Source of the DNA: Escherichia coli
Lineage (GTDB): Bacteria; Pseudomonadota; Gammaproteobacteria; Enterobacterales; Enterobacteriaceae
DNA: 64,000 nt
NCBI RefSeq assembly: GCF_003790525.1
Contig: NZ_CP033635.1
Reading direction: 5' to 3' (one strand)
Below the pieces are notes generated by a model. That model was not told where the DNA came from. It ran no database searches and saw only the letters and a list, made by a program, of their open reading frames with translations. The translations under genes were made by a program, and so were the position numbers. Of the stretch, positions 12,158-24,626 are shown in pieces (the stretch's first letter is position 1; every line of letters begins with the position of its first letter).

Positions 12158-12294
12158 ATGGCAAAGCCGATCATCACGCTCAATGGCCTAAAAATCGTCA
12201 TTATGTTGGGAATGCTGGTCATTATTCTCTGCGGTATCCGTTTTGCCGCCGAGATCATCGTGCCGTTTATTCTCGCATTATTTATTGCTGTTAT
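12158..12294 (+). pseudogene. tqsA: 5' fragment of tqsA (AI-2 exporter), first ~46 codons; reading frame then runs into element DNA and stops after 7 foreign codons
   Basis: ATG at 12158 encodes [45 protein letters not shown]; the remainder of the gene resumes in frame at 23729. Confidence 0.85.
12286..12294. repeat. attL core (direct repeat 'tgctgttat')
   Basis: Identical 9-mer at 23720-23728; chromosomal tqsA sequence on the left, element-specific sequence on the right. Confidence 0.7.
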
Positions 12295-12365
12295 ATATAA
12301 CTTATTTCGCTTAACTAATTGATTTAATTAAATAATTTGCACTACAAAAAGTGCCAAAAATCGCA

Positions 12366-12391
12366 AATTAACTACACCATTAACTACACCG
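12366..12391. repeat. 26-bp element-end repeat 'aattaactacaccattaactacaccg' (tandem 'ttaactacacc'), candidate integrase arm-type site, left end
   Basis: Exact 26-bp copy at 23567-23592 next to the int start; both copies in direct orientation just inside the element ends. Confidence 0.6.
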
Positions 12392-13466
12392 TTCGGCGCA
12401 CTGTATGAAACAACGTGGAACAAATAGACACAAGCGGCAGGCTATACCGTTATCATTTTTCAGCTATCCGTCATGAAGCTGGTGGATGATCACGGATAAC
12501 CAGGCATCTACAGCGCCTTAAAAAGCTGAACCCGACAAACATTTCTGCTTATCGGGTCCGATCGCTCTTTCTACTCGTGGCAGATGAGTTTACTAGGAAG
12601 GGGGGAACATTGTATCAGGCTATCCCCTTTCTGTGCTGATTCGGCTGGTGAATGATCTACTTGGGGCACTACACTTTTCGGATAGTGCGGGTATCCGGTT
12701 TTCTGCCTCATCGAATTTTAAGCCTTCTGACGGCCTGTATATCATTTCCTGTGGAGTTGCCGCCCTGATAGCGAATACTGCGGCAGCATGTGATTTACCC
12801 CCCGTTCTGTTGATGTTTGATGTGGCTGGTTGATGTGCTGCCATGTTTTCCGCCAATGGTGGAAAAGCCCACCAGCGCAACGCAGGACGCATAAAACCAT
12901 TGCGATGACTCTGGACGCAAAACCACGTTTAACGATGTTTTGCACTGAACCAGAATACTGTTCGTTTTTGTCTCGATGTCCGTACGTATTACGTCCGCAC
13001 CTAATCCGGCATCATGCCCACCAGCGTAACGCATTTTTTTAATTTCGTGGCTGTGCGTCCACCAGCTACGCCGGAATGGGGTATTCCGTTTCAACGGAAC
13101 AGGTATGACGAACATAATCGCACCTTCTCCCGAAAACGGTGCGACCTGCATCATCGAAATGGTGATTCAGCTACTCGGCGATTTTCACCATTCAGAATCT
13201 GGCGGGTGAGTTATCCAGCTTCCACCAATGGGGGATTCTGGAACAATCAACGGGTTACGCCTTATCAGCAAAAAAGCACATCAACTGTAAAGGAAATCGT
13301 TATGGTTGCTGGTGGGCTGCGTCACCATCATGGTGATGATGCTGTCCAGTCAGCCGGAACGGTTGAACAGGGTGGCTATGGGTCACTCTGTTGTGCGTTA
13401 TTTGCGTGATCCTGGTACGGGGTGACTATCTTTCAGATAGTCGGTTGCCTGGTTACACGAAAAAAT

Positions 13467-13775
13467 TTACTTCCTGCGTTTATCCTGCTTTGTATGCCCG
13501 TGCTGAATGCCCCGCAGTGGATCTTCTTTTTTCAGGTCGATCCCCATGTCCGTTAGTGTTTTTGTGGCGGCGGTTCTTATGGCACAAATCAGGTCTCTTT
13601 CCGGTTCCCGGGTTATGGTTGCCTTCCGGATGCATGCCGTTCGTCGTTCCGTTACATACTGACGCGCTTCATCACTTGCCGCCTGTTTCAGTAACTCACC
13701 CCAGCGATTAGCCGCCCGTCGCCATAAACCTTTCGCTTCCAGTTCTTCCGCTTTGTCATCATGCACCATAAGCAT
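13467..13775 (-). CDS. PerC-family-like putative transcriptional activator (copy 2)
   Basis: N-terminal MVHDDKAEELEAKGLWRRAANRWGEL resembles PerC/Pch activators (recalled) and is a paralog of the 17352-17624 ORF; start chosen at an internal Met. Confidence 0.45.
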   Translation of the reverse strand: MLMVHDDKAEELEAKGLWRRAANRWGELLKQAASDEARQYVTERRTACIRKATITREPERDLICAIRTAATKTLTDMGIDLKKEDPLRGIQHGHTKQDKRRK

Positions 13776-13883
13776 AATCCCATTGATACCTGTTAACTCT
13801 GAATGGTTGGTTTCTGTTCTTTTGATAATTTCCCGCATAGCTTATTGTATGACAGTACTGTCCCACAATAAGGAGTTGCACGC

Positions 13884-14174
13884 ATGAGAATGACTAGGCA
13901 CAAAAAACAGATTCTTGAACTCTACAAACCTGAGTATCGCGATTGGGTGCGGGTGGAGGCCGGAGATCCGCCTTTTGATGTTCGTGGTGTGACAGTGCTG
14001 CTCTATGGTTCCGAATATCGGCGATATCACATAGAGGCAACACGAAGGACGCTAAACGCTATGGTTCGTGATAAGTTGCTGGAGCGTGTGAAAGTCCGTG
14101 AGCCACGTTTTGATGTGCGTATTGGTGGCGATGGTGCGCATTGCACGGTAATCCGCTATGGCCTGGTAAGGTAA
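13884..14174 (+). CDS. hypothetical protein (96 aa), only plus-strand gene in the left half of the element
   Basis: ORF with ATG start; internal duplicated motif PPFDVRGV / PRFDVRIGG; followed by the palindrome 'cagaatgtaaatttacattctg'. No family recognised. Confidence 0.4.
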   Translation: MRMTRHKKQILELYKPEYRDWVRVEAGDPPFDVRGVTVLLYGSEYRRYHIEATRRTLNAMVRDKLLERVKVREPRFDVRIGGDGAHCTVIRYGLVR

Positions 14175-14276
14175 GCCATCGGGTAAATCAGATGATTAAA
14201 TCACCAGAATGTAAATTTACATTCTGCCAGCCACCAGCTACCCTCCTCAAAATTGAGGACCCTTTTTATCAACTGG

Positions 14277-14558
14277 TTACCGCCGCAACCGTTCCGGCTT
14301 CTTCCACTGATAAGTGTTTTTCGCGCTCTCCTGATACATCGCCACGCGTCGACGGTATGCCAGCAACTCTAGTACTCTGATTCGTATGTCGCGCATATCC
14401 ACGCCGTTAAGCTCAATACCATCACGGCGCATTACATCAGCAACAACACGCACATAATTTTCGGCGGTCACGCTGTCCGGCTGCGTGGCCTGTTCGTCAT
14501 GCTGCTGGCTGATTCCGGTAACGCGGCGGATTAATCCCAGTAGTTCGACTTCTGTCAT
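14277..14558 (-). CDS. hypothetical protein (~94 aa) immediately downstream of the cos/terS region
   Basis: ORF-track frame 14277..14756; start moved to the internal Met (MTEVELLGL...) so that it does not overlap the cos-like sequence. Function unknown. Confidence 0.4.
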   Translation of the reverse strand: MTEVELLGLIRRVTGISQQHDEQATQPDSVTAENYVRVVADVMRRDGIELNGVDMRDIRIRVLELLAYRRRVAMYQESAKNTYQWKKPERLRR

Positions 14559-14591
14559 TGTGCCCCCATCGCTCTGATAGTCTGGTGTCGT

Positions 14592-14655
14592 CGGGTCCTT
14601 TCCGGCATGTGGACCCGTTACGGGGCGTCGACCTCGCGCGTTTTCACTATTTATG
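14592..14655 (+). other. lambda-like cos site, copy A (cosN plus flanking sequence)
   Basis: 'cgggtcctttccgg...gttacggggcgtcgacctcgcgcgttttcactatttatgaaaattttt' closely parallels the phage lambda cos junction as I recall it ('...acgggtcctttccggtgatccgacaggttacg|gggcggcgacctcgcgggttttcgctatttatgaaaattttccgg'); the 12-mer gggcgtcgacct at 14623-14634 differs from the lambda cohesive end at one base. Confidence 0.75.
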
Positions 14656-14671
14656 AAAATTTTTCGGGATC

Positions 14672-14770
14672 CATGTCCGGTTTCTCTGCAAGTTAACCAT
14701 ATGAAAAATATAAAAACATGCTTTCCATGAACCGGACATGCGCAAAAAACAGACACTAAAACCGGACATC
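14672..14770. promoter_or_regulatory. cosB-like array: three 'ccggacat' repeats (one inverted, two direct) with an AT-rich spacer, candidate binding sites for the element's Nu1-like protein
   Basis: 'catgtccgg' at 14672-14680, 'accggacatg' at 14731-14740, 'accggacatc' at 14761-14770; located on the cosB side of cos copy A, where lambda has R3-I1-R2-R1. Confidence 0.5.
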
Positions 14771-14837
14771 GAACCAGTTAACCGAAAGTGTGCACAAATC
14801 ACATTCATTGCTGCGAGTGATTAACAAGTTATCGGCT

Positions 14838-15272
14838 TTACTGTTCTGTATCGGCTGATTGCTCCATGCTGGCACGGCGAACGCTTACGGCATGACGCCA
14901 CCCAGCCAGAAAGCCAGCCATTTTATTTCGTGCCTTGCTCACATCTTCCGGTGAATAGCCGTAAATATGCAAACCTTCATCAAATCGATGTTCTGTTTCT
15001 TCACTGGAGTACTCGTCACGCTCAGATGAAAGCAGCCTCGCAAACATAATTTTTTCCAGCGCACTGGTTTCTACGTGATATCCGATGGTCTGAAGATGGC
15101 TTTTACCTGAATACCAAAGCAATGTATGCCCGATGTGATAACCGCCAGACTTTCCGCGATCCGCATTAAGATACGGCATCCCCTGTTTGGTCCATGCGCG
15201 AATAGTGGTTCTGTTAACCTTGAAATGTTCAGCTATTTCCTGCTGACTTACAAAACAAGCTTTATCAATCAT
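14838..15272 (-). CDS. terminase small subunit Nu1-like DNA-binding protein (possible packaging-specificity/redirecting factor)
   Basis: N-terminus QQEIAEHFKVNRTTIRAWTKQGMPYL parallels lambda Nu1 KKQLADIFGASIRTIQNWQEQGMPVL (winged HTH); C-terminal half unlike Nu1; flanked by cos-like sites. Confidence 0.65.
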   Translation of the reverse strand: MIDKACFVSQQEIAEHFKVNRTTIRAWTKQGMPYLNADRGKSGGYHIGHTLLWYSGKSHLQTIGYHVETSALEKIMFARLLSSERDEYSSEETEHRFDEGLHIYGYSPEDVSKARNKMAGFLAGWRHAVSVRRASMEQSADTEQ

Positions 15273-15339
15273 AATGTTACCTTAACTGCATGGTTAAATA
15301 TCAATCAAGTGGTGGTGGTGTCACCTTCACGGAAAAACG

Positions 15340-15403
15340 TCATAAATAGCGAAAACGTGCGAGGTCGACGCCCCGTAACGGGTCCACATGCCGGAAAGGA
15401 CCC
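15340..15403 (-). other. lambda-like cos site, copy B (inverted copy of A, cosN plus flank, without the 'ccggacat' array)
   Basis: Reverse complement matches copy A at 62 of 64 positions; lies ~70 bp upstream of the Nu1-like gene start on the same strand. Confidence 0.7.
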
Positions 15404-15404
15404 G

Positions 15405-15430
15405 CAAAAAAAGCCGGATTTCTCCGGCCT
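15405..15430 (-). terminator. rho-independent terminator after the head-gene cluster (minus strand)
   Basis: Minus-strand hairpin ggccggagaaatccggcc followed by a T-run; related hairpin motif at 17324-17345. Confidence 0.5.
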
Positions 15431-15502
15431 TGTCTCAGATGGTTTTCAGTATGCGATAGATGTCGCCGTCATCGCCCTGGTTTGTGCCATCGTTCCCCCT
15501 GC

Positions 15503-15838
15503 TTATCGGGCCAGCGGCTGAACGGATACGCCGGAACCCGCAAAGGCGGCGCATTTTTTCGCATCGGTGTCGACGCTCTCAGGCCAGTTAACGGCGGCAA
15601 TATTGAATATCCCCGTCTTGTAACACTGTGCTGATTTCTGCTTTGACGTGTCCACAGGGTACGAGGTCAGATAAACAGCCTTGCCAGATTCCTTACCATC
15701 CCACGCCTTAAACTCGCCATTGTCTGCCAGCATCAGCGGGGTAAATTCCTGAATAACGCCAGCATCAGCGGCAAAATGTACCAGCGTCGTGGATACCTGT
15801 TGGCTGCCTGAAAATAACTCAATGTATGGAGCGTCCAT
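15503..15838 (-). CDS. head decoration protein, lambda gpD-like
   Basis: 111 aa; motifs TPLMLADNGEFKAWDG, YKTGIF, NWPE and KKCAAFAG parallel lambda gpD (TPLMLDTSSRKLVAWDG, YKSGTF, LWPE, KKRTAFAG) as recalled. Confidence 0.7.
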   Translation of the reverse strand: MDAPYIELFSGSQQVSTTLVHFAADAGVIQEFTPLMLADNGEFKAWDGKESGKAVYLTSYPVDTSKQKSAQCYKTGIFNIAAVNWPESVDTDAKKCAAFAGSGVSVQPLAR

Positions 15839-15849
15839 AGAATCCCCCG

Positions 15850-16905
15850 TTAAGCAATTTTGACGGTAACAAATTTGCGAATATCTGCCGGTACAGGCTG
15901 CGGTGCGCTGTGCGTCTGCACGTACTCAATCGCCGGATCGCCGTCCTCAATCCAGTTTTTCGGGTAGTACATGTTTTGCGTTGCGCCCGTTCTTACCGCT
16001 TCCTGATCCATAATCGCACCATATGCCACCAGCCCTTTATTGTTGGTGTTACCCAGGACCAGCAAATCAGGCTCAAGGAAATATTTTTCGGTCCCGTCGC
16101 TGTCAGTGTATTTGCCGGAATAGACGATAAGGGCCAGATCACCAAGATAGCCTTTAAAGCTCACCACTTCGCCCAGGTTTTTACAGGCCAGCTCGGCGGC
16201 GGATTCTGATCCACGGGAAAGATCGTACAGTTCACGGAATTTTTTAAAGCTGCGTAATGTGCGCCATACCTCACCGCCCATAATCATGACGTTGGCGGGG
16301 CAACCTGCCTGATCAGCATAAAGCTCGATGTCATAGATTGGGTCGTGCATGTCTTTATCCTGCTGGGACCATTTTTTACCACTGGCCTGCTGTATGATGC
16401 AGTTTTCCGGTATTTTCCAGTCGATTTCATAGCGTTCTATGCCTTCGCCCTCAATGATGTTTTTTCCGGTCGTTACCGCATTCACCGCCAGCCATTCCAC
16501 GCGCGCCTTAATGGCGTTTATCTGGCGGCGCATGTTGCCAGTAATCAGGCGCATACGGCGGTAAGTTGGATCGTTAAGCTGTGCCGGATCTTCTCCATCC
16601 ATGCGCATGATGGTCTTTGTTGGATCGATTTCGTGCTTTGGCTTCATGTAGCCTGGTTTAATCGTGCTGGTTTCGTACCCTTTATCGCGCTGGACCTGAC
16701 TACCCACCATAGGAGAACAGAACGCTGACATCGTAACCTCTTCAATGTCCAGGGTGTCCAGCATGATGTTTTGGGTGTTGAAGGTCGCCACGTTCGGGAA
16801 AAACAGCGTGGTAAACAGCGGACTAAATTTATATTCCGAAATATCCCCGCGATTCAGGTACGCGAAAAGCTGGTTAGTTGTAAGTGCCTTTGCTTTGCCT
16901 GTCAT
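15850..16905 (-). CDS. major capsid protein, lambda gpE family
   Basis: 351 aa; YKFSPLFTTLFFP and PGYMKPKHEIDP parallel lambda gpE FKFDPLFLRLFF and PGYVKPKHEVNP; similar length to gpE. Confidence 0.75.
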   Translation of the reverse strand: MTGKAKALTTNQLFAYLNRGDISEYKFSPLFTTLFFPNVATFNTQNIMLDTLDIEEVTMSAFCSPMVGSQVQRDKGYETSTIKPGYMKPKHEIDPTKTIMRMDGEDPAQLNDPTYRRMRLITGNMRRQINAIKARVEWLAVNAVTTGKNIIEGEGIERYEIDWKIPENCIIQQASGKKWSQQDKDMHDPIYDIELYADQAGCPANVMIMGGEVWRTLRSFKKFRELYDLSRGSESAAELACKNLGEVVSFKGYLGDLALIVYSGKYTDSDGTEKYFLEPDLLVLGNTNNKGLVAYGAIMDQEAVRTGATQNMYYPKNWIEDGDPAIEYVQTHSAPQPVPADIRKFVTVKIA

Positions 16906-17111
16906 TATTCACCTCCGTGAACCTGATTGATACCCAGCGCCGCACGCAAATAGGTGCGCACCTGCCAGCCTGTTGACGGCTCAACCATCGCCAGCGGATC
17001 AAGTCCTGCCGCAATGCCTGCTTTTACATTCTGCTGGTGGCGTTCCTTGAGCGCCTCCACGATGTCGGGGCTTATGTAGACCGTCACCCCGCCTTTTTTC
17101 TCTTCTGCCAT
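16905..17111 (-). CDS. hypothetical protein (68 aa), first gene of the head cluster
   Basis: ORF with ATG start, stop overlaps the capsid gene start; no family recognised. Confidence 0.4.
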   Translation of the reverse strand: MAEEKKGGVTVYISPDIVEALKERHQQNVKAGIAAGLDPLAMVEPSTGWQVRTYLRAALGINQVHGGE

Positions 17112-17323
17112 AGTCAGAAATTCCTCTTTGACTTAAAAAATCATAACTGGATGTTCATCCAGTCCTGATTATAATCATGATTGCATTTTGCGCAACAATA
17201 TTGAGTTACGTTGCAAATTATGAAATGATTATCCCGATCATGTGTGTCAGTTCACCATAAAAAACCTCGTATACAAAAGCCCCATAAGCCCCCTGTGACC
17301 TTATCGGGCTTTTTTTAGGCGTA

Positions 17324-17345
17324 AAAAAGCCGGATTGCTCCGGCT
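17324..17345 (-). terminator. rho-independent terminator downstream of the PerC-like gene (minus strand)
   Basis: Minus-strand hairpin gccggagcaatccggc followed by TTTTTT. Confidence 0.5.
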
Positions 17346-17351
17346 GTGTGC

Positions 17352-17624
17352 TCACTTCTGCGGGTAGTTGCGCCATATTGCTTTGCCAATACCAGCTATC
17401 CCCATTTGTTTTTCAGTGCGATTAACTGACCTTTTCAGAGCGCCTAAATCATCCGGCGGCTCCGGTGGCCTCTGTGCCTTACGGATACATTCCGCGCGAC
17501 GCATTGCCACCTGTTCGCGCTCCTTGTCTGTCTCCACCAGCCTCATAACTTCACCCCATCGCGCCGCCGCCCTCCGGTAAAAGCCTTTTGCCTCGAGTTC
17601 CTCCGCTATGCGGTCATGTACCAT
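17352..17624 (-). CDS. PerC-family-like putative transcriptional activator (copy 1)
   Basis: MVHDRIAEELEAKGFYRRAAARWGEV...; paralog of the 13467-13775 ORF; start placed at the internal Met just after the ssb stop. Confidence 0.45.
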   Translation of the reverse strand: MVHDRIAEELEAKGFYRRAAARWGEVMRLVETDKEREQVAMRRAECIRKAQRPPEPPDDLGALKRSVNRTEKQMGIAGIGKAIWRNYPQK

Positions 17625-17634
17625 CGTCACCCCC

Positions 17635-18045
17635 TCAGAACGGAATATCATCACCGTAAGGGTCATCGCCTCCCGCTGGTGGCTGATTACCCTGTGTGCC
17701 TGTGGTTTTGCGTCTGTTCCCGCCAGGACGTGCCGCACGGGCACTGATTACGCTGTCTGCAATAACCTGCCAGCCCTGCCGCGTTTCCCCGTTCTGTCCG
17801 GTCCACTGGCTGACCTGCATCGTGCCGGATACGCTGGCAACGTCGCCTTTTTGATGTTTAGCCAGAAAGTCGGCCTGTTTGCCAAATGCGATGACCGATA
17901 ACCATAACGTCGCCTGTCCGTCCTGTGCCTGGCCGCATGGTAAAGATACCGCCATACGCGCCAGCGTCATCGGTGTACCCTTACTGGTCTGTTTTACCTG
18001 CGGGTCGTCCACCAGCCGCCCGTAAGCTGCTATCTGTGCTGTCAT
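17635..18045 (-). CDS. ssb: single-stranded DNA-binding protein (SSB)
   Basis: 136 aa with OB-fold-like core, Gly/Pro/Gln-rich linker and the acidic C-terminal tail ...DDIPF typical of SSB. Confidence 0.7.
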   Translation of the reverse strand: MTAQIAAYGRLVDDPQVKQTSKGTPMTLARMAVSLPCGQAQDGQATLWLSVIAFGKQADFLAKHQKGDVASVSGTMQVSQWTGQNGETRQGWQVIADSVISARAARPGGNRRKTTGTQGNQPPAGGDDPYGDDIPF

Positions 18046-18284
18046 GCTGTCTGCTCTCCGGTTTTAACGTTGATGGTTGTTACCTGTTCTGCTTCGGCAA
18101 TATCCCGCTCTGTCAGCGTGGCAAAGTTTGCCGCCGTCGTTGTCATGAATGCGCTTATCAGTTCGGGATGTGCTTTCGCGTATCCTTCCCCTGTGTTGCG
18201 GTCGATGATTTTTATCGCCACCCTCAGCCAGTGCTCTGTAAGGTCAATGGCGCGGTGATCTGTCTTTTTGTGGCTTACCTTCAT
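18042..18284 (-). CDS. hypothetical protein (80 aa)
   Basis: ORF in the replication module, overlaps ssb start by 4 nt (coupled); no family recognised. Confidence 0.45.
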   Translation of the reverse strand: MKVSHKKTDHRAIDLTEHWLRVAIKIIDRNTGEGYAKAHPELISAFMTTTAANFATLTERDIAEAEQVTTINVKTGEQTA

Positions 18285-18287
18285 GAT

Positions 18288-18656
18288 TTACTCCAGAGTA
18301 CCGCTATTGCTGCTGTCGTTAACCGGATACCAGGCAAATACCATCGATTCACCACAGTGAACAAACTTCTTATCCGGCAGATAAAGGCACTCGCACATTC
18401 CCTCATCAGGACTATGCGGACTCATGCCCAGCTCACTGGTCAGCACGGGTAAGATTTCGCGGCAGGTGTTCCCCGCACCGAAATAATCAACCTCACAAAG
18501 CGCCCATGCAGCAATCGGGCTGTACCATTCCGTGCCGTCGTCGTCTTTGAACTTAGCCCACCAGCCAGGAAGGGCAGTTGATATGCTCAGTGTTTCAATT
18601 TCAGTGTTCATAAATTTACCTTCGGTATTTTGTCCTGCTGTTCGATTTTTATTCAT
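18288..18656 (-). CDS. hypothetical protein (122 aa or shorter)
   Basis: ORF directly downstream of the iteron region; Cys-containing; no family recognised. Confidence 0.45.
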   Translation of the reverse strand: MNKNRTAGQNTEGKFMNTEIETLSISTALPGWWAKFKDDDGTEWYSPIAAWALCEVDYFGAGNTCREILPVLTSELGMSPHSPDEGMCECLYLPDKKFVHCGESMVFAWYPVNDSSNSGTLE

Positions 18657-18860
18657 TGCTCACCATCTCTCACTTTTACTACTCACTTTTTAAAGCGTCT
18701 CGCTTCGTCTCACTTGAGATTTTTGTGTTTTGTATGTGCATGTTTCATAAGTGTTTTTTCACTGCTCACTTTTGAGCATGTATACAGGTGAGAAAGTGAG
18801 TAATTGTGTTAATATTTTGTAAAAACCTCACCATTACTCACTTTTACTACTCACTTTTTA
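18657..18860. repeat. iteron array, candidate replication origin ('ctcactttt' repeated ~7 times, one inverted, around an AT-rich core)
   Basis: Copies at 18669, 18682, 18709 (variant), 18765, 18793 (inverted), 18837 and 18850; 'ctcacttttactactcacttttta' occurs twice; lies immediately 3' of the rep ATPase gene. Confidence 0.6.
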
Positions 18861-20264
18861 CAGTGGTCCTACATCATCACCATCAATGTAAATCACGGCG
18901 TCTTTTTCCAGTTTGGCTAACCATCGCCGCATATTTTTCACGTCATACCCAAGCCGTTTCATGTCATCACGTAACAGCGGGATCGTGCACTTGTCGCCGT
19001 TCTGTGTGCGTGAACGGATGCACCCCCATAGCGCGGTATGGTTTTCCGTCTTGTTGCCTGCCTCCTCGATGCGCTCCAGTTCAGCAGGGGCGCGGGGAAC
19101 GTCAATCACCACCATGGACACAATTTCTTCGCCATCTGTATCGGTGAACACCTCCACGCTTTTAAGGTCGTATGCACTCTCTTTTGGCTCCTCTGCGTCC
19201 TTCATCTTCGTACACGCCGCAACCAGTGCTGTAACGTCTGAATTTTCCCTGCTGATTCGGTACTCTGCATCAAGCGCGGCACGGAATGCACTGGAACCAC
19301 GCGCCCCCTTTGTTTCATCCTTGCCGGAATGGTGAACCACCAGCACCGTGGCCCCTGTGGCCTGCTTTATCGCGTCACACCCCTGGATAAATGCGCCCAT
19401 ATCACGGGAATCATTTTCATCATTCCCACCAAAGCAACGGGCCAGCGTGTCGATCACAATCAGCCGCACATTTTCGCCCGTTCTGCTCTTAACAAGTCCG
19501 GCAGTCCTGATAACCTGCTCCACATAGTCAGGCGATGCAGGGAAAACAGGCGCGTTAATGATGCACAAATCTGTAACCACCTTGTCGTGGGTTATCTCCC
19601 ACGCCTTAACGCGGCGTTTTACGCCCATGCTGCCTTCACCAGCGATATAGATAACCGCACCCTTACTTACCCTGCGGCCTCCCCATGCCATACCTGTGGC
19701 AACATGGCACGACCAGGAAATGGCGAGGAACGATTTATAAGAACCGCTGGCCCCGTAGGTGCTGCATAATGACTCAGCCGGAATAAGCCCCTTAATGACG
19801 TAGCTTTGCTGCGCATCGAATCCCTCAGAACCCCATGAGATGGGAAGTGTGATTTTTCGCTTTCCGCCATTCATGACCAGGCTTTCCCCTCTCTCCCATG
19901 TTTCCCGTAGTCGTGGTAGCTGGTCGCTCCAGTCCTCCAGCAGTTCGAAATTTTCAGAAAGTAGCCGCGCCTCCTGGACTCCGGCGATCGCCAGTTTTGT
20001 GGCAATGGTCAGCATCTGCATATCGTCCAGGTTTCCGGCGCGTATGACCTTTACCCTGTATCGTCCTTCATCAACAATCTGTAAGTTGTCCAGTTCGCTT
20101 AACTGATAACGGCCCAGATAAACCGGAGGGATGGGATCGCCTGCTTTTTTGGCCTGTGCAATCATGTAATGTTCTGCAAAGGAGTGAGCATTATCACCCG
20201 CAAAAATAACCGCCTCAGTGTGTTTATCTTTCGGTAACAGTTTTACGTTCGGTGCAAGTTTCAT
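18858..20264 (-). CDS. replication protein with RecA-like P-loop ATPase domain (RepA/DnaB-like, satellite pri-rep type)
   Basis: 468 aa; Walker A YGASGSYKS, Walker B-like RLIVIDTL, HHSGK motif; C-terminal region possibly DNA-binding; iterons directly downstream. Confidence 0.65.
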   Translation of the reverse strand: MKLAPNVKLLPKDKHTEAVIFAGDNAHSFAEHYMIAQAKKAGDPIPPVYLGRYQLSELDNLQIVDEGRYRVKVIRAGNLDDMQMLTIATKLAIAGVQEARLLSENFELLEDWSDQLPRLRETWERGESLVMNGGKRKITLPISWGSEGFDAQQSYVIKGLIPAESLCSTYGASGSYKSFLAISWSCHVATGMAWGGRRVSKGAVIYIAGEGSMGVKRRVKAWEITHDKVVTDLCIINAPVFPASPDYVEQVIRTAGLVKSRTGENVRLIVIDTLARCFGGNDENDSRDMGAFIQGCDAIKQATGATVLVVHHSGKDETKGARGSSAFRAALDAEYRISRENSDVTALVAACTKMKDAEEPKESAYDLKSVEVFTDTDGEEIVSMVVIDVPRAPAELERIEEAGNKTENHTALWGCIRSRTQNGDKCTIPLLRDDMKRLGYDVKNMRRWLAKLEKDAVIYIDGDDVGPL

Positions 20265-20548
20265 TTCTTACCCCCTGCGACCAGCATTTCACGGATTTTG
20301 CGGATATAACTTGCAGCACGTTTCTGATTAACGGCTTTACGATGGCCCACCAGCGTGAAATCACGCCGGAACTGATAAACAGGCATAACGCAGTCATATT
20401 CGTAGCCTTCACGGCGGTAAGTGATGCGACGTTCCTCCACGCCCTTAATCATTACCGTGCCGCCGTAGTTATCACGGAAAATATCGCCGGGACGGATTTC
20501 AGGACGAGCGGGGCCGCTGGCATTAACGCCAGAATTTTTATTTTTCAT
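20261..20548 (-). CDS. hypothetical protein (95 aa), translationally coupled upstream of rep
   Basis: ORF overlapping the rep start by 4 nt; basic; no family recognised. Confidence 0.45.
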   Translation of the reverse strand: MKNKNSGVNASGPARPEIRPGDIFRDNYGGTVMIKGVEERRITYRREGYEYDCVMPVYQFRRDFTLVGHRKAVNQKRAASYIRKIREMLVAGGKK

Positions 20549-20553
20549 GTTTT

Positions 20554-20781
20554 TTATTCTCCGGTGTGCTGTTCTTTATATCTGTCGTGAATTGCCATCA
20601 CTGTATTTAATTCATTAATAACAGCCGTTAATAGCGTACGCACGGCAGAAAACATCATTGAATCAGATTCATCGCCACTTTCCTGCACATCAATTAAATT
20701 AAGTAGTAATGCGTCCATTTCCTTTGCGCGGATTAATGCCTTTTCACAATGAAAAATAACACCAAAGGGTATTTTATTCAT
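20554..20781 (-). CDS. hypothetical protein (~75 aa; ORF-track frame extends to 20823)
   Basis: First gene of the minus-strand replication operon; start uncertain (MNKIPFGV... versus the upstream Met). Confidence 0.4.
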   Translation of the reverse strand: MNKIPFGVIFHCEKALIRAKEMDALLLNLIDVQESGDESDSMMFSAVRTLLTAVINELNTVMAIHDRYKEQHTGE

Positions 20782-21060
20782 GACTCCCCTCCTGACGGAT
20801 ACGGGCGGCGAATACAGCGACACAACCGGACGGGCAACGGTTACGCGCTTCGCGTTCCGTCCAGGCGGTCACGTGGATAATTTGAGATTCTCCGGCACTC
20901 AGTGCCAGAAAACGCCACACAAAGGCGGTTTGTGTGTGCGCTAGTCGTGGGGTATGCTGTGTTCCAGCCATAATCGTTACTCCTGTTAACGGTTTGGTTA
21001 GACGCCCTGCATGTGTTACAGCACTGCGGGGCGTTGTCTTTTTAACGGCTTTCGTGATAG

Positions 21061-21104
21061 GGTGTACACCTATCAAGCAAAAACATAACGCTATAGGTGT
21101 ACAC
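21061..21104. promoter_or_regulatory. perfect 12-bp inverted repeat (gtgtacacctat ... ataggtgtacac), candidate operator abutting a small regulator gene
   Basis: Read directly from sequence; the 3' half ends 1 nt before the ATG at 21105. Confidence 0.5.
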
Positions 21105-21299
21105 ATGTCAACAGTTATTAAGCGAGATAAAAAACCAAAGGGAACAGGAAAAGCCCCCCCATTCCATATGCGAATAGCTCCAGAACTGAAAGAGCAGTTT
21201 GATAATGAGGCCAGCAATGATGGGGTAAGCCTAGCCAACTGGCTTAAAGAGTTGGGGCGCGCCGAACTAAAGCGACGCGGCATTGAACCTAAAGGCTGA
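21105..21299 (+). CDS. small basic protein (64 aa), possible ribbon-helix-helix/YlcI-YnfO-like prophage regulator
   Basis: MSTVIKRDKKPKGTGKAPPFHMRIAPELKEQFDNEASNDGVSLANWLKELGRAELKRRGIEPKG; family assignment from memory only; divergent from the replication operon. Confidence 0.4.
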   Translation: MSTVIKRDKKPKGTGKAPPFHMRIAPELKEQFDNEASNDGVSLANWLKELGRAELKRRGIEPKG

Positions 21300-21302
21300 T
21301 GT

Positions 21303-21426
21303 ATGACTGAAAAGCAGACCGATAACAAACTTTCTCTACCAGAGAATAAACCAGCAGGCTTCTTACCAAGAAAAATCCTTGATGAGATCAAACGCCGCCA
21401 GCGCCGCAAGGCCAAAGAGCAGGAAT
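21303..21426 (+). CDS. possible small protein (41 aa, Lys/Arg-rich C-terminus)
   Basis: ATG 4 nt after the preceding stop; MTEKQTDNKLSLPENKPAGFLPRKILDEIKRRQRRKAKEQE; followed by a strong hairpin terminator. Too short for the ORF track. Confidence 0.25.
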
Positions 21427-21460
21427 AGCCCACCAGCAAGCCAGCACACTGATCACATTG

Positions 21461-21490
21461 GCCACCGTGACAGGTGGCCTTTTCTTTGCC
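21461..21490 (+). terminator. rho-independent terminator (ggccaccgtgacaggtggcc + T-rich tract)
   Basis: Perfect 7-bp stem with 6-nt loop followed by ttttctttg, just after the 41-codon ORF. Confidence 0.55.
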
Positions 21491-21752
21491 CGTTATCCGG
21501 CAATTGTGGCGCTTCGCCACACGGTTGATATAATTCCCCTGCTCAGATTCATTTTTTGCGCGGCAGGTAAATTGTTCAGAAAGGCGGCTCCTTATCGGGG
21601 CCGCTTTTTTTATGTCTGAAAAACCGCGATTTTGTTGTTTTTCAGTTTCACCAGGCCGAACGAAGCCCCGCCCATGTTCGGGCGTATATCCAGTCTTCAT
21701 GGTTAAATCTCTGTATTAGTGGATGGGTGGCGGCTGTGTGCCGCCAGTCTTT

Positions 21753-21941
21753 TTAGTGAACTGCCTCGCAGCTTTCCTTCCATGCCAGAACTTCGGATAA
21801 AGACCAGCCAACGGAACGACCGCCCAGCTTACGCCGTGATGGGAATTGTCCGGCCTTTTCCAGGCGGTAGCGGCATGAGCGGCTAAGGCCTGTTAGCTTT
21901 TCGCATTCTTTTTCACGTATAAAGCGATCAGTGCTTAACAC
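21753..21941 (-). CDS. alpA: AlpA-family (Phage_AlpA) transcriptional regulator
   Basis: 62 aa; ...EKLTGLSRSCRYRLEKAGQFPSRRKLGGRSVGWSLSEVLAW... matches the AlpA HTH signature; adjacent to int. Confidence 0.75.
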   Translation of the reverse strand: MLSTDRFIREKECEKLTGLSRSCRYRLEKAGQFPSRRKLGGRSVGWSLSEVLAWKESCEAVH

Positions 21942-22315
21942 TATTGCCCCCTTTCGTTTCTTAAAGAGTTATTTCGTGTTCTATTGCGTTGGGATGTGTC
22001 TGATTGTGTCAGGGTGATTCAGAGTTGGCAAATGTTGGTGGCGGGTATTTTACAGAAACGGGGTGATTTTAATAAAAATCATTTTAATTCAGTATTATGC
22101 AAAGGCATAAAATCTCGTTTTATGCCTTTTTTCTCACTATTTAAAGCGTTATTCGCTAATGTATAAAAAACCAGTTGAGCATTAAAAATCAGCAACTTAT
22201 AAATCTGTATACTTTTTGACCTCTTGTTCGTGGTTGTTTCACGTTGTTGTGTATTGTTGCACGTTGTATCTGTGCACTTATCCAGTATGCGCATACTGAA
22301 AAAACACGAAAAAAA

Positions 22316-23563
22316 TTATTTTCTTCTGGCTACTGGTAGCGTGGTTACGTTTTCATGTGCTCCCGCCAGTATCTCCAACCGCTCCACCCACATATCCAGC
22401 GCATTGCGTTTCGCATCCAGATAACGGGAATGATTATAAACTCGCTGCATTCCTGGCATCTGGTGGCCTGTAAGCTGCTCCACGACGTGAGGATCCACGC
22501 CTAAATCGTTCAGCATCGTTGTAAAGGTGCGCCGGATGTCATGCAGTGACCATTGAGGGTGTTTTAGCCTCCTGTGCGCTAATCTGCCGTACTGCGATAC
22601 GCTGGCCTCCTGTTTCACTTCCCCCAGTAATAAGCCCGTGTGCCTGTTCTGCTCCACCAGCCGCGTGACGAACGGCAGGATCGCTTCCGGTATGGGCCGG
22701 AATATTGCGACCTTCGTTTTGCTGTGCTCCTTCGGAACGGTCCAGAGCATTTCCGTGAAATCCCACTCCCCGATCTCCGATAACCTCAGTTCTACCGTCC
22801 TGGCTCCGAAGACAATCAGGAGGCGGATTAGTGCGACGTAGTAAGGGGAAAATATTTTTTTGTCCAGTGCCTGCAATAATTCGCCCAGTTCTTTGGTGCT
22901 TAAGACACGTTCGCTTATATCCGGTTTTTTCCCAACGTCCGCCACGTTCAGATCGTCCAGAACGTTGCTGATTGCATAGCGCCGCCTCCGGCAAAACTTA
23001 AGCGCCTGTTTGCACGCCTGTAGCACGAATCCGGCAGTAACAGGCGTTCGCTTTGCCACCCGATCAAAACAGGCCAGCCAGTGCCGTAGCTCGCATTTAT
23101 CCAGCGGCATAGCACCAATGTGCTGTATTACGTGATTATTAAGTCGCCTTTTCAGGGCGATATAATCCACGCGGTTTTCCTTTACGTAAGACTCAAGCCA
23201 GTAGGTGAGCGCATCTCCAACCGTTACAGGCTTTAACGCTTCCTGCATGGTGTAATTCATCTCATGACGTGGATTTTTCCCCTCAGCCAGCCATGCGCGA
23301 CACTGGGCGGCTTTTTCCCTGGCTGATTTCAGGCTCAGATCAGGATAATTTCCCAGCTTAATACGTTCCGGTCGTGTCTCTCTTCCCGTTCCGGCCCTGT
23401 AAGTGAAATACCAGGTTAAAAGGCCGCTGGTTGAATGCCTGACGCTCAGATTTCCACCGTCATTAAGAAAGGCTGTTTTTTGGGCGGGTGTGCCGTTGAT
23501 TTTCCTTAGCTGTGTATCGCTCAGCTTGTTAAGTGCTCTGGTCATAATTTTGAATCCGGTCAT
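22316..23563 (-). CDS. int: tyrosine site-specific integrase (P4-type)
   Basis: ~415 aa; N-terminal arm-binding-like region, C-terminal catalytic motifs (HDIRRTF, GHQ..VYNHSRY); located at the element's right end next to the arm-type repeat. Exact start uncertain (GTG/ATG/ATG cluster). Confidence 0.85.
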   Translation of the reverse strand: MTGFKIMTRALNKLSDTQLRKINGTPAQKTAFLNDGGNLSVRHSTSGLLTWYFTYRAGTGRETRPERIKLGNYPDLSLKSAREKAAQCRAWLAEGKNPRHEMNYTMQEALKPVTVGDALTYWLESYVKENRVDYIALKRRLNNHVIQHIGAMPLDKCELRHWLACFDRVAKRTPVTAGFVLQACKQALKFCRRRRYAISNVLDDLNVADVGKKPDISERVLSTKELGELLQALDKKIFSPYYVALIRLLIVFGARTVELRLSEIGEWDFTEMLWTVPKEHSKTKVAIFRPIPEAILPFVTRLVEQNRHTGLLLGEVKQEASVSQYGRLAHRRLKHPQWSLHDIRRTFTTMLNDLGVDPHVVEQLTGHQMPGMQRVYNHSRYLDAKRNALDMWVERLEILAGAHENVTTLPVARRK

Positions 23564-23566
23564 CAC

Positions 23567-23592
23567 AATTAACTACACCATTAACTACACCG
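23567..23592. repeat. 26-bp element-end repeat (same as 12366-12391), right end, immediately upstream of int
   Basis: Exact 26/26 identity with the left copy. Confidence 0.6.
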
Positions 23593-23719
23593 ATCGTTGC
23601 ACAAAGGGCTACAACGTGAAACAAGCTGGAACAAGAAAAATCACAAATTTGTTTATAATCAAAAACATAATGCACAACCTGAAACATTATGAAACGGCAA
23701 AAAACACTAATTGATAAAG

Positions 23720-23728
23720 TGCTGTTAT
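23720..23728. repeat. attR core (direct repeat 'tgctgttat')
   Basis: Identical to 12286-12294; element sequence on the left, tqsA sequence on the right. Confidence 0.7.
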
Positions 23729-24626
23729 TCTTAACCCGCTGGTGCAACACATGGTCCGCTGGCGAGTGCCGCGTGTACTGGCGGTGTCGATTTTGATGAC
23801 CATCATCGTGATGGCGATGGTGTTGCTGTTAGCTTATCTGGGTTCCGCGCTCAACGAGTTGACGCGGACGTTACCGCAATATCGCAACTCTATTATGACG
23901 CCGCTGCAAGCGATTGAACCGTTGTTGCAACGCGTAGGGATTGATGTCTCAGTTGACCAACTGGCGCATTACATTGATCCGAACGCGGCAATGACGTTGC
24001 TCACCAACTTATTGACGCAGTTATCTAATGCCATGTCATCAATCTTTTTATTGCTGCTGACGGTGCTGTTTATGTTGCTCGAAGTGCCACAATTGCCCGG
24101 AAAATTTCAGCAAATGATGGTGCGTCCGGTTGAAGGGATGGCGGCGATTCAGCGTGCGATTGACAGTGTGTCTCATTATCTGGTGCTGAAAACAGCCATC
24201 AGCATCATCACCGGCCTGGTCGCCTGGGCGATGCTCGCCGCACTCGATGTTCGCTTCGCTTTTGTCTGGGGATTGCTGGCCTTTGCGCTTAATTACATCC
24301 CTAATATTGGTTCAGTTCTCGCGGCAATCCCCCCTATCGCTCAGGTACTGGTGTTTAATGGCTTCTACGAAGCGTTGCTGGTGCTGGCGGGATATCTGCT
24401 AATTAATCTGGTCTTCGGCAATATTCTGGAGCCGCGCATCATGGGACGTGGGCTGGGGCTTTCCACATTGGTGGTATTTTTGTCGTTGATTTTTTGGGGA
24501 TGGTTGTTAGGACCGGTGGGTATGCTGCTTTCCGTGCCGTTAACAATTATTGTCAAAATTGCGCTTGAACAAACAACGGGAGGTCAAAGCATCGCCGTTC
24601 TGTTAAGCGATCTCAACAAAGAGTGA
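23729..24626 (+). pseudogene. tqsA: 3' portion of tqsA (AI-2 exporter, AI-2E/PerM family), separated from its 5' end by the element
   Basis: In-frame continuation ([12 protein letters not shown]...) of the fragment ending at 12294; upstream frame closed by tga/taa in element DNA; only an internal GTG/ATG could restart translation. Confidence 0.8.

Follow-up and report, generated by a model that had tools for sequence, protein, structure and literature searches.

The question raised by this locus is what kind of mobile element interrupts tqsA, the gene of the autoinducer-2 (AI-2) exporter TqsA, in a 64,000-nucleotide stretch of Escherichia coli DNA (contig NZ_CP033635.1, RefSeq assembly GCF_003790525.1; the whole stretch is called the window below), and to what extent that element was already known. 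The genes of the window are those of the E. coli chromosome (ydgD, mdtIJ, tqsA, pntBA), and an insert of 11.4 kb splits tqsA at 12294/23729. It is concluded here, with a probability of about 0.93, that the insert represents a phage-inducible chromosomal island (PICI) of the EcCICFT073 type, integrated in the tqsA attachment site known for this family. The element is an ordinary further member of the known family and not a new lineage. What stays of interest in it is family-wide, namely the selectively maintained homologues of the lambda head proteins gpE and gpD (the E/D homologues); a cargo segment and a variant cosN are specific to the locus.

The limits of the insert can be fixed to the nucleotide. 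The tqsA reading frame (MAKPII...ALFIAVI) starts at 12158, breaks at 12294 and is picked up again at 23729, and the 9-bp core TGCTGTTAT is present at both junctions (the window contains four copies of this sequence, where 0.5 would be expected). When the flanks are joined with one copy of the core, the resulting 186-nt sequence corresponds to intact tqsA with 100% identity, and it is found unbroken, as an empty site, in 5,174 of the 5,426 complete E. coli genomes searched. The integrase-side junction of the element, counted when a match spans at least 80% of the junction query, is present in 246 of them (4.5%), so that empty and occupied tqsA sites together account for essentially all the genomes. 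The direct repeats and the perfectly reconstructed attB indicate that the insertion and its limits are real. Thus, the split with a 9-mer at each junction, first noticed in a first-pass annotation made from the sequence alone, has been confirmed, and the comparison with uninterrupted tqsA genes that it recommended has defined attB. Since both junctions are tqsA, an element continuing into further phage genes is excluded, which disposes of the larger, complete prophage extending outside the window that the same annotation had considered.

A specific site with flanking direct repeats, other than the att sites of prophages, is what would be expected of an EcCICFT073-type PICI, and this particular site had already been catalogued. 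The islands EcCI042 and EcCIK1516 are both listed in tqsA with the att core ATAACAGCA (Fillol-Salom et al. 2018, PMC6092414 Table S1), which is the reverse complement of TGCTGTTAT. After insertion, tqsA is left as a 54-codon stub (12158-12322) and a 5'-truncated remainder (23729-24626), both annotated as incomplete pseudogenes in RefSeq. The in-frame stops TGA TAA sit directly ahead of the core at the remainder, and the element therefore gives it no replacement N-terminus. Carriers, 4.5% of the complete genomes, would probably have no functional AI-2 exporter TqsA until the island is excised.

Gene content was assigned by means of PHROGs, PDB and the annotation of RefSeq neighbours (Table 1). 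The core genes are all intact and co-linear with those of EcCICFT073 (AE014075.1 1377749-1389210), the prototype Gram-negative PICI, also of 11.4 kb, both elements showing the order int, alpA, Icd-like gene, DUF4222 gene, rep, ori iterons, ssb, perC, 68-aa gene, capsid gene, decoration gene, cos, rppA, cos and 93-aa gene. Integrase and AlpA (phrog_1 and phrog_2790) are encoded together at one end; a replication initiator of its own is accompanied by an adjacent origin; the packaging module combines phage-like cosQ and cosN with a different cosB and an Rpp protein; and the whole amounts to about one third of a helper genome, no ORF (open reading frame) having matched the portal, large terminase (TerL), protease, tail or lysis families of PHROGs. 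The PICI core used by SatelliteFinder consists of integrase, AlpA, primase-replicase, a capsid morphogenesis gene and a small-terminase-like gene (de Sousa 2023, PMC10085698). All five functions are present here by PHROG and PDB matches, and the element would be of Type A, with the reservation that its RepA may miss the primase-replicase profile; none of the forbidden components (tail, holin, portal, head-tail connector or attachment) appears among the PHROG matches. The module rpp-dec-mcp has been found in 611 of the 5,426 complete genomes (11%).

The inventory of the first-pass annotation (integrase, AlpA, a replication ATPase with iterons, an SSB, E-like and D-like genes and cos sites, with portal, large terminase, protease, tail and lysis genes absent) is borne out by the PHROG, PDB and repeat searches. 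Its preference for a PICI-type satellite over a prophage agrees with the EcCICFT073 gene set and with the presence of tqsA on both sides.

Table 1. Features of the element, in order of position in the window.
Feature	Position	Strand	Evidence or remark
att core TGCTGTTAT, integrase-distal	12286..12294	+	final 9 bases of the 5' tqsA fragment
Sub-terminal direct repeat with tandem AATTAACTACACC	12366..12434	+	internal repeat search
Accessory ORF, 106 aa	12795..13115	-	hypothetical in CM2; no PHROG, PADLOC, NCBIfam or Pfam match
Accessory ORF, 67 aa	13206..13409	+	in CM2 annotation; no PADLOC or NCBIfam match
Second, divergent PerC-family regulator	13467..13769	-	phrog_994 and phrog_10396 (transcriptional activator); 'PerC family' in CM2
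Accessory ORF, 96 aa, with internal 40-nt duplication	13884..14174	+	internal repeat search
Conserved 93-aa PICI gene downstream of rpp (orf93)	14277..14558	-	phrog_1561; 78% identical to CFT073 homologue
cos downstream of rpp (cosQ-cosN; cosN GGGCGTCGACCT at 14623-14634)	14592..14669	+	inverted-repeat search, alignment
rppA, redirecting phage packaging protein, 144 aa	14838..15272	-	96% identical to CFT073 RppA
cos upstream of rpp (cosQ-cosN-cosB reading towards rpp; cosN 15362-15373)	15327..15404	-	inverted-repeat search, alignment
Remnant of Nu3-like scaffold gene (c1501 homologue)	15448..15492	-	deletion between two acgATGGCA repeats
Head decoration homologue, lambda gpD/phage 21 SHP type (= c1500)	15503..15838	-	phrog_49; 96% identical to CFT073
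Major capsid homologue, lambda gpE type (= c1499)	15850..16905	-	phrog_29, E 2e-108; 95% identical to CFT073
Conserved 68-aa gene overlapping capsid gene start	16905..17111	-	phrog_3255
PerC-family regulator, family-typical copy	17352..17624	-	phrog_994, E 9e-42; CM2 annotation
SSB	17635..18045	-	phrog_44, E 4e-41; ~98% identical to CFT073 SSB
Conserved 80-aa gene	18042..18284	-	phrog_1231; homologue in CFT073
107-aa replication-module gene	18288..18611	-	phrog_27268; CM2 annotation
Replication origin	18660..18860	-	5 AAAGTGAGYA iterons and degenerate copies around an A+T-rich centre
RepA-family replicative helicase, 468 aa	18858..20264	-	phrog_2850, E 4e-188
DUF4222 protein	20261..20548	-	phrog_285; CM2 annotation
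Small early gene	20554..20781	-	phrog_2196 on residues 15-86; probable start M15 of 89-aa ORF
Icd-like cell-division inhibitor homologue, 65 aa	20774..20971	-	so annotated in CM2, CFT073 and 042
Arc/HicB-like ribbon-helix-helix protein	21105..21299	+	phrog_228; CM2 annotation; divergent from early operon
AlpA, activator of island cycle	21753..21941	-	phrog_2790, E 1e-17; ~94% identical to CFT073 AlpA
Tyrosine integrase, 409 aa from M8	22316..23545	-	phrog_1, E 2e-73; 94% identical to EcCICFT073 Int
Sub-terminal repeat, second copy (AATTAACTACACC x2)	23567..23635	+	internal repeat search
att core TGCTGTTAT, integrase side	23720..23728	+	tqsA continues at 23729

Whether the element could represent a new satellite lineage, outside the PICI, cfPICI and P4 families, deserves consideration, taking into account that a RepA-family helicase replaces the EcCICFT073 primase, that the Nu3-like gene is gone and that the cargo segment is rare. 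An uncharacterised lineage had been suspected on other grounds in the first-pass annotation, to which lambda-type E and D head genes and the tqsA site both seemed foreign to known satellites. Neither premise holds: c1499, a putative capsid protein, and c1500, a head decoration protein, are both encoded by EcCICFT073 (PMC6092414), and tqsA is the listed site of EcCI042 and EcCIK1516. Moreover, the core proteins share 94-96% identity with their EcCICFT073 counterparts and the genes are arranged in the same order, the att site and core are published, and the tqsA-catalogued EcCI042 also has a RepA-family helicase, four allelic Pri-Rep variants having already been noted among E. coli PICIs (PMC6092414). 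The differences amount to module swaps and a deletion within a known family, and a separate lineage is thus very improbable; the well-characterised PICI with the same gene set that a database search might bring to light, as the annotation had foreseen, is EcCICFT073.

The element nevertheless differs in several respects from its relatives. EcCICFT073 is inserted in the ycfD-phoQ intergenic region with the core GGACATATTT, whereas the present element lies in tqsA with the core ATAACAGCA; the prototype has a primase and c1501, replaced here by the RepA helicase and a deletion, respectively; it lacks the cosN change and the extra 1.8-kb cargo with a second PerC gene; and the early region 20590-21650 of the present copy cannot be aligned to it. 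EcCI042 (E. coli 042, FN554766.1 1832521-1843554, 11 kb) shares the tqsA insertion point, the 9-bp core, the architecture and the RepA-family helicase, but only about 70% of the region aligns, at 89% identity; it keeps the Nu3-like gene and is devoid of the left-end cargo. EcCIK1516 (JHJE01000001.1 141718-153137), in tqsA and with the same core, has a listed size of 11.4 kb, as here. The closest whole copies are those of E. coli CM2, PKF11 and PKF4 (RefSeq), all in tqsA and with the same cargo (96-98% coverage, 99.1-99.3% identity), the CM2 copy having about 317 bp extra in the early region, between the DUF4222 and Icd-like genes.

The exchange of the replication module can be delimited. The RepA helicase occupies the position held in EcCICFT073 by the primase, and the two proteins are alike in residues 1-126 alone (47% identity); judging from this alignment, the N-terminus looks like a transferable domain shared among PICI replication proteins of different kinds. 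Identity with the RepA of EcCI042 is 63%. Five AAAGTGAGYA iterons are found in 18680-18857, against 0.2 expected in the whole window, directly 3' of repA on its coding (minus) strand and within 200 bp. In EcCICFT073, the region 3' of the primase contains different repeats in place of these AAAGTGAG iterons.

The gene described in the first-pass annotation as Nu1-like does encode an N-terminus that matches small terminase (phrog_57), and that part of the description stands; its identity, however, is RppA, which binds the helper small terminase (TerS) and is not itself one. The 144-aa protein has the published RppA length, matches RppC (PDB 6HLK/6HN7) with an E of 4e-32 and, in the alignment with CFT073 RppA, keeps R21, T22, T23, W27, L51 and F121, residues that have been mutated or proposed as DNA contacts (PMC6739421).

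As in EcCICFT073, two inverted cos sites flank rpp, and here they make up a 78-nt inverted repeat (91% complementarity). Both align with lambda cosQ-cosN and some 35 nt beyond, and then diverge at cosB, in an alignment with a lambda sequence entered by hand. The cosB side of the cos at 15327-15404 is identical to that of the CFT073 site upstream of rppA, and the cosB side of the other one matches the CFT073 site downstream; taking into account also the identity of RppA, the same packaging specificity is expected. In lambda, cosB lies between cosN and Nu1, and because of this arrangement the site upstream of rpp would, by analogy, be cos1. In the reported mechanism, the Rpp-TerS heterodimer prevents the phage cosB from being recognised and favours recognition of the island cosB at cos1 (PMC6739421).

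In each of the two cosN copies, the sixth position of the 12-nt cohesive end has changed from G to T, giving GGGCGTCGACCT where lambda and EcCICFT073 have GGGCGGCGACCT. An exact-match scan of IMG/VR for this variant gave 10 matches, in contigs of 4-21 kb, mostly PICI-sized, and none in a contig of phage-genome length. This distribution suggests a satellite-borne variant, held identical in both inverted copies.

A separate observation concerns the RppA protein. It differs from CFT073 RppA by six amino-acid changes, with nearly no synonymous change in the gene (dN/dS about 1.6), and five of the six lie in residues 54-63, just past the TerS-contacting L51, a number too small for significance. Such a cluster would fit a tuning of the protein to a different helper TerS.

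The similarity of cosQ/cosN and of the head proteins to those of lambda could also be explained if the element were a decayed lambdoid prophage, of which only E, D, cos and Nu1-like sequences remained. The homology is clear: a PDB search with the capsid homologue retrieves 3BQW ("putative capsid protein of prophage", 351 aa; E 5e-229) and lambda gpE (7VI9; E 4e-81), and the decoration homologue matches phage 21 SHP and lambda gpD (PDB 1TD0, 1C5E) with E values of 1e-13 to 1e-9. However, in the comparison with CFT073, dN/dS is 0.08 for the capsid homologue and 0.24 for the decoration homologue, low values which indicate that both are maintained genes and not debris, the former under purifying selection. 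The genes are closely packed, no ORF is broken and the att repeats are exact; moreover, hundreds of genomes contain elements of this architecture, which occupy several att sites. Integrase, AlpA and replicon are the element's own and unrelated to lambda modules, and PHROGs revealed no decayed copies of portal, TerL, tail or lysis genes. At the DNA level, megablast against 50,697 phage records returned fragments of 45-180 nt only, a negligible similarity, and the element is therefore not part of a known phage. Finally, the prototype has been experimentally mobilised as a unit (PMC6092414). Thus, a prophage remnant is hardly credible.

Just as improbable is a cfPICI or a P4-like satellite, for which the capsid-type proteins, in the first case, and the P4-family integrase with an AlpA homologue, in the second, could be invoked, since portal, protease, head-tail adaptor/connector and the own terminase genes of cfPICIs (PMC10085698) are all unmatched, leaving E-like and D-like proteins only, and no ORF matches the Psu, Delta, Sid, epsilon or alpha primase families of P4.

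Assignment to the EcCICFT073 type allows a life cycle to be proposed by analogy with the prototype. In EcCICFT073, AlpA is activated by the helper; int is required for excision and transfer, alpA is required, and pri-rep is needed for efficient transfer, which is cos-dependent, is carried out by lambda and phi80 and depends on the phage TerS (PMC6092414). In the present island, a lambdoid cos-type helper in lytic growth would switch on alpA, and AlpA would in turn activate the leftward operon. The integrase would then excise the island across the 9-bp core, restoring tqsA, and the RepA helicase, with SSB, would replicate it from the iteron origin just 3' of repA. RppA, as a heterodimer with the helper small terminase (Nu1/TerS), would divert the terminase from the phage cosB to the island cosB, which adjoins the lambda-like cosQ-cosN. 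Island concatemers would thus be cut and packaged in helper-made capsids with helper tails, and the helper yield would fall.

Several points weigh against the assignment or against extending the behaviour of the prototype to this copy. Helper-dependent induction, high-frequency transfer and interference with the helper have been shown for EcCICFT073 only (PMC6092414), and EcCI042, the sole tqsA member tested, gave fewer than 1 transductant per ml from its native strain with mitomycin C (Table 1 of PMC6092414). The change in both cosN copies separates the island from EcCICFT073 and lambda at the cohesive end itself and may influence nicking by lambdoid terminases. Since the prototype has another replication protein, the details of replication given above are predictions from position and iterons. 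Lastly, no helper prophage is found within the window, the other ORFs being ordinary chromosomal genes.

The role of the capsid and decoration homologues is the question that the element shares with its whole family, of which these genes are a regular component conserved by selection. In EcCICFT073, all packaged DNA was phage-sized, deletion of c1499 or c1500 left interference in place, and an island with c1499::cat was transferred at 1e5 to 1e6 per ml (PMC6092414); the E/D homologues are therefore dispensable for transfer of the prototype by the helpers tested. SaPIbov5, according to its description in the same paper, is also a cos-packaged PICI with a capsid homologue (ccm), but that homologue makes small capsids, in contrast with the phage-sized DNA packaged by EcCICFT073. 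Within the literature collection searched, no later mention of the decoration homologue was found, and a paper citing EcCICFT073 that was examined for capsid content assigns no function. The 68-aa gene that overlaps the start of the capsid gene has no homologue found in the phage collection.

A third head-related gene belongs to this set. In EcCICFT073 and EcCI042, a 137-aa gene lies between the decoration gene and cos, and its product resembles the Nu3 scaffold of phage-21-type lambdoid phages (37% over 83 aa, E 2e-5 to 4e-4), its C-terminus matching phrog_53; by this likeness, E-, D- and Nu3-like genes are all represented in the prototype islands. In the present copy, a microhomology deletion has left a 14-codon, out-of-frame remnant of it. 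Taking into account that c1501 was the tetA insertion site in the transferable marked EcCICFT073 island (PMC6092414), loss of the Nu3-like gene should not block transfer, and this natural loss would offer a ready-made genetic contrast with regard to the role of the E/D pair.

The left-end cargo, a segment of about 1.8 kb (12435-14266), contains the second PerC-family gene and three orphan ORFs, and is complete in only 3 of the 5,426 complete genomes. The PerC protein that it encodes is only 41-49% identical to the other PerC copies compared. Apart from this gene, no match to the cargo was obtained in PHROG, PADLOC, NCBIfam, Pfam or Rfam (in the case of Pfam, for two of the three orphan ORFs), and PADLOC, NCBIfam and Pfam searches with the accessory and small conserved ORFs gave nothing but a sub-threshold ANR/PerC match. 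Likewise, no RNA family was recognised between 11800 and 24200 with Rfam at an E limit of 0.1. A scan for promoters and terminators was not informative, promoter-like sites being fewer than in shuffled sequences.

As a doubtful proposal, to which we give much less credit than to the class assignment, it could be suggested that the E/D pair has a capsid-related role seen with particular helpers only and that, separately, the cargo has an undescribed anti-phage or virulence-regulatory function. In such a role, the E/D proteins might, for instance, co-assemble into heads that are chimeric or of satellite size, or they might interfere with particular helpers.

As a discovery, the island carries little weight, since the family, the packaging mechanism and the exact att site were published in 2018-2019. 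Its value for annotation is more immediate: the split tqsA should be read as a PICI insertion, and not as an assembly error or a prophage, and the "Nu1-like" gene should be renamed rppA. In addition, the dN/dS of 0.08 and the disappearance of the scaffold-like gene from a natural copy are relevant to the role of the capsid and decoration homologues of these islands, which have been without an assigned function since 2018.

With respect to the early region, an ORF of 308 aa can be read at 20774-21700 (minus), in which the real gene comprises the final 65 codons alone (20774-20971, Icd-like); the remainder, overlapping the divergent Arc/HicB-like gene, is most likely spurious. The integrase start is most likely M8, as RefSeq has it in near-identical copies.

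Just inside both ends of the element there are 69-nt direct repeats, 77% identical to each other. These AATTAACTACACC repeats are probably arm-type integrase binding sites; the motif is likewise found at both ends of EcCICFT073, and the repeats are conserved in EcCI042 as well. The reverse complement of the repeat containing AATTAACTACACC is the string given as the 'att site core' of EcCIDI14 (PMC6092414 Table S1), an entry which may thus describe arm repeats and not the true core. As for site choice, integrase identity amounts to about 94% with EcCICFT073, whose core is a different one, and to about 93% with EcCI042, whose tqsA core is the same; the overall identity of the integrases therefore does not follow the site used.

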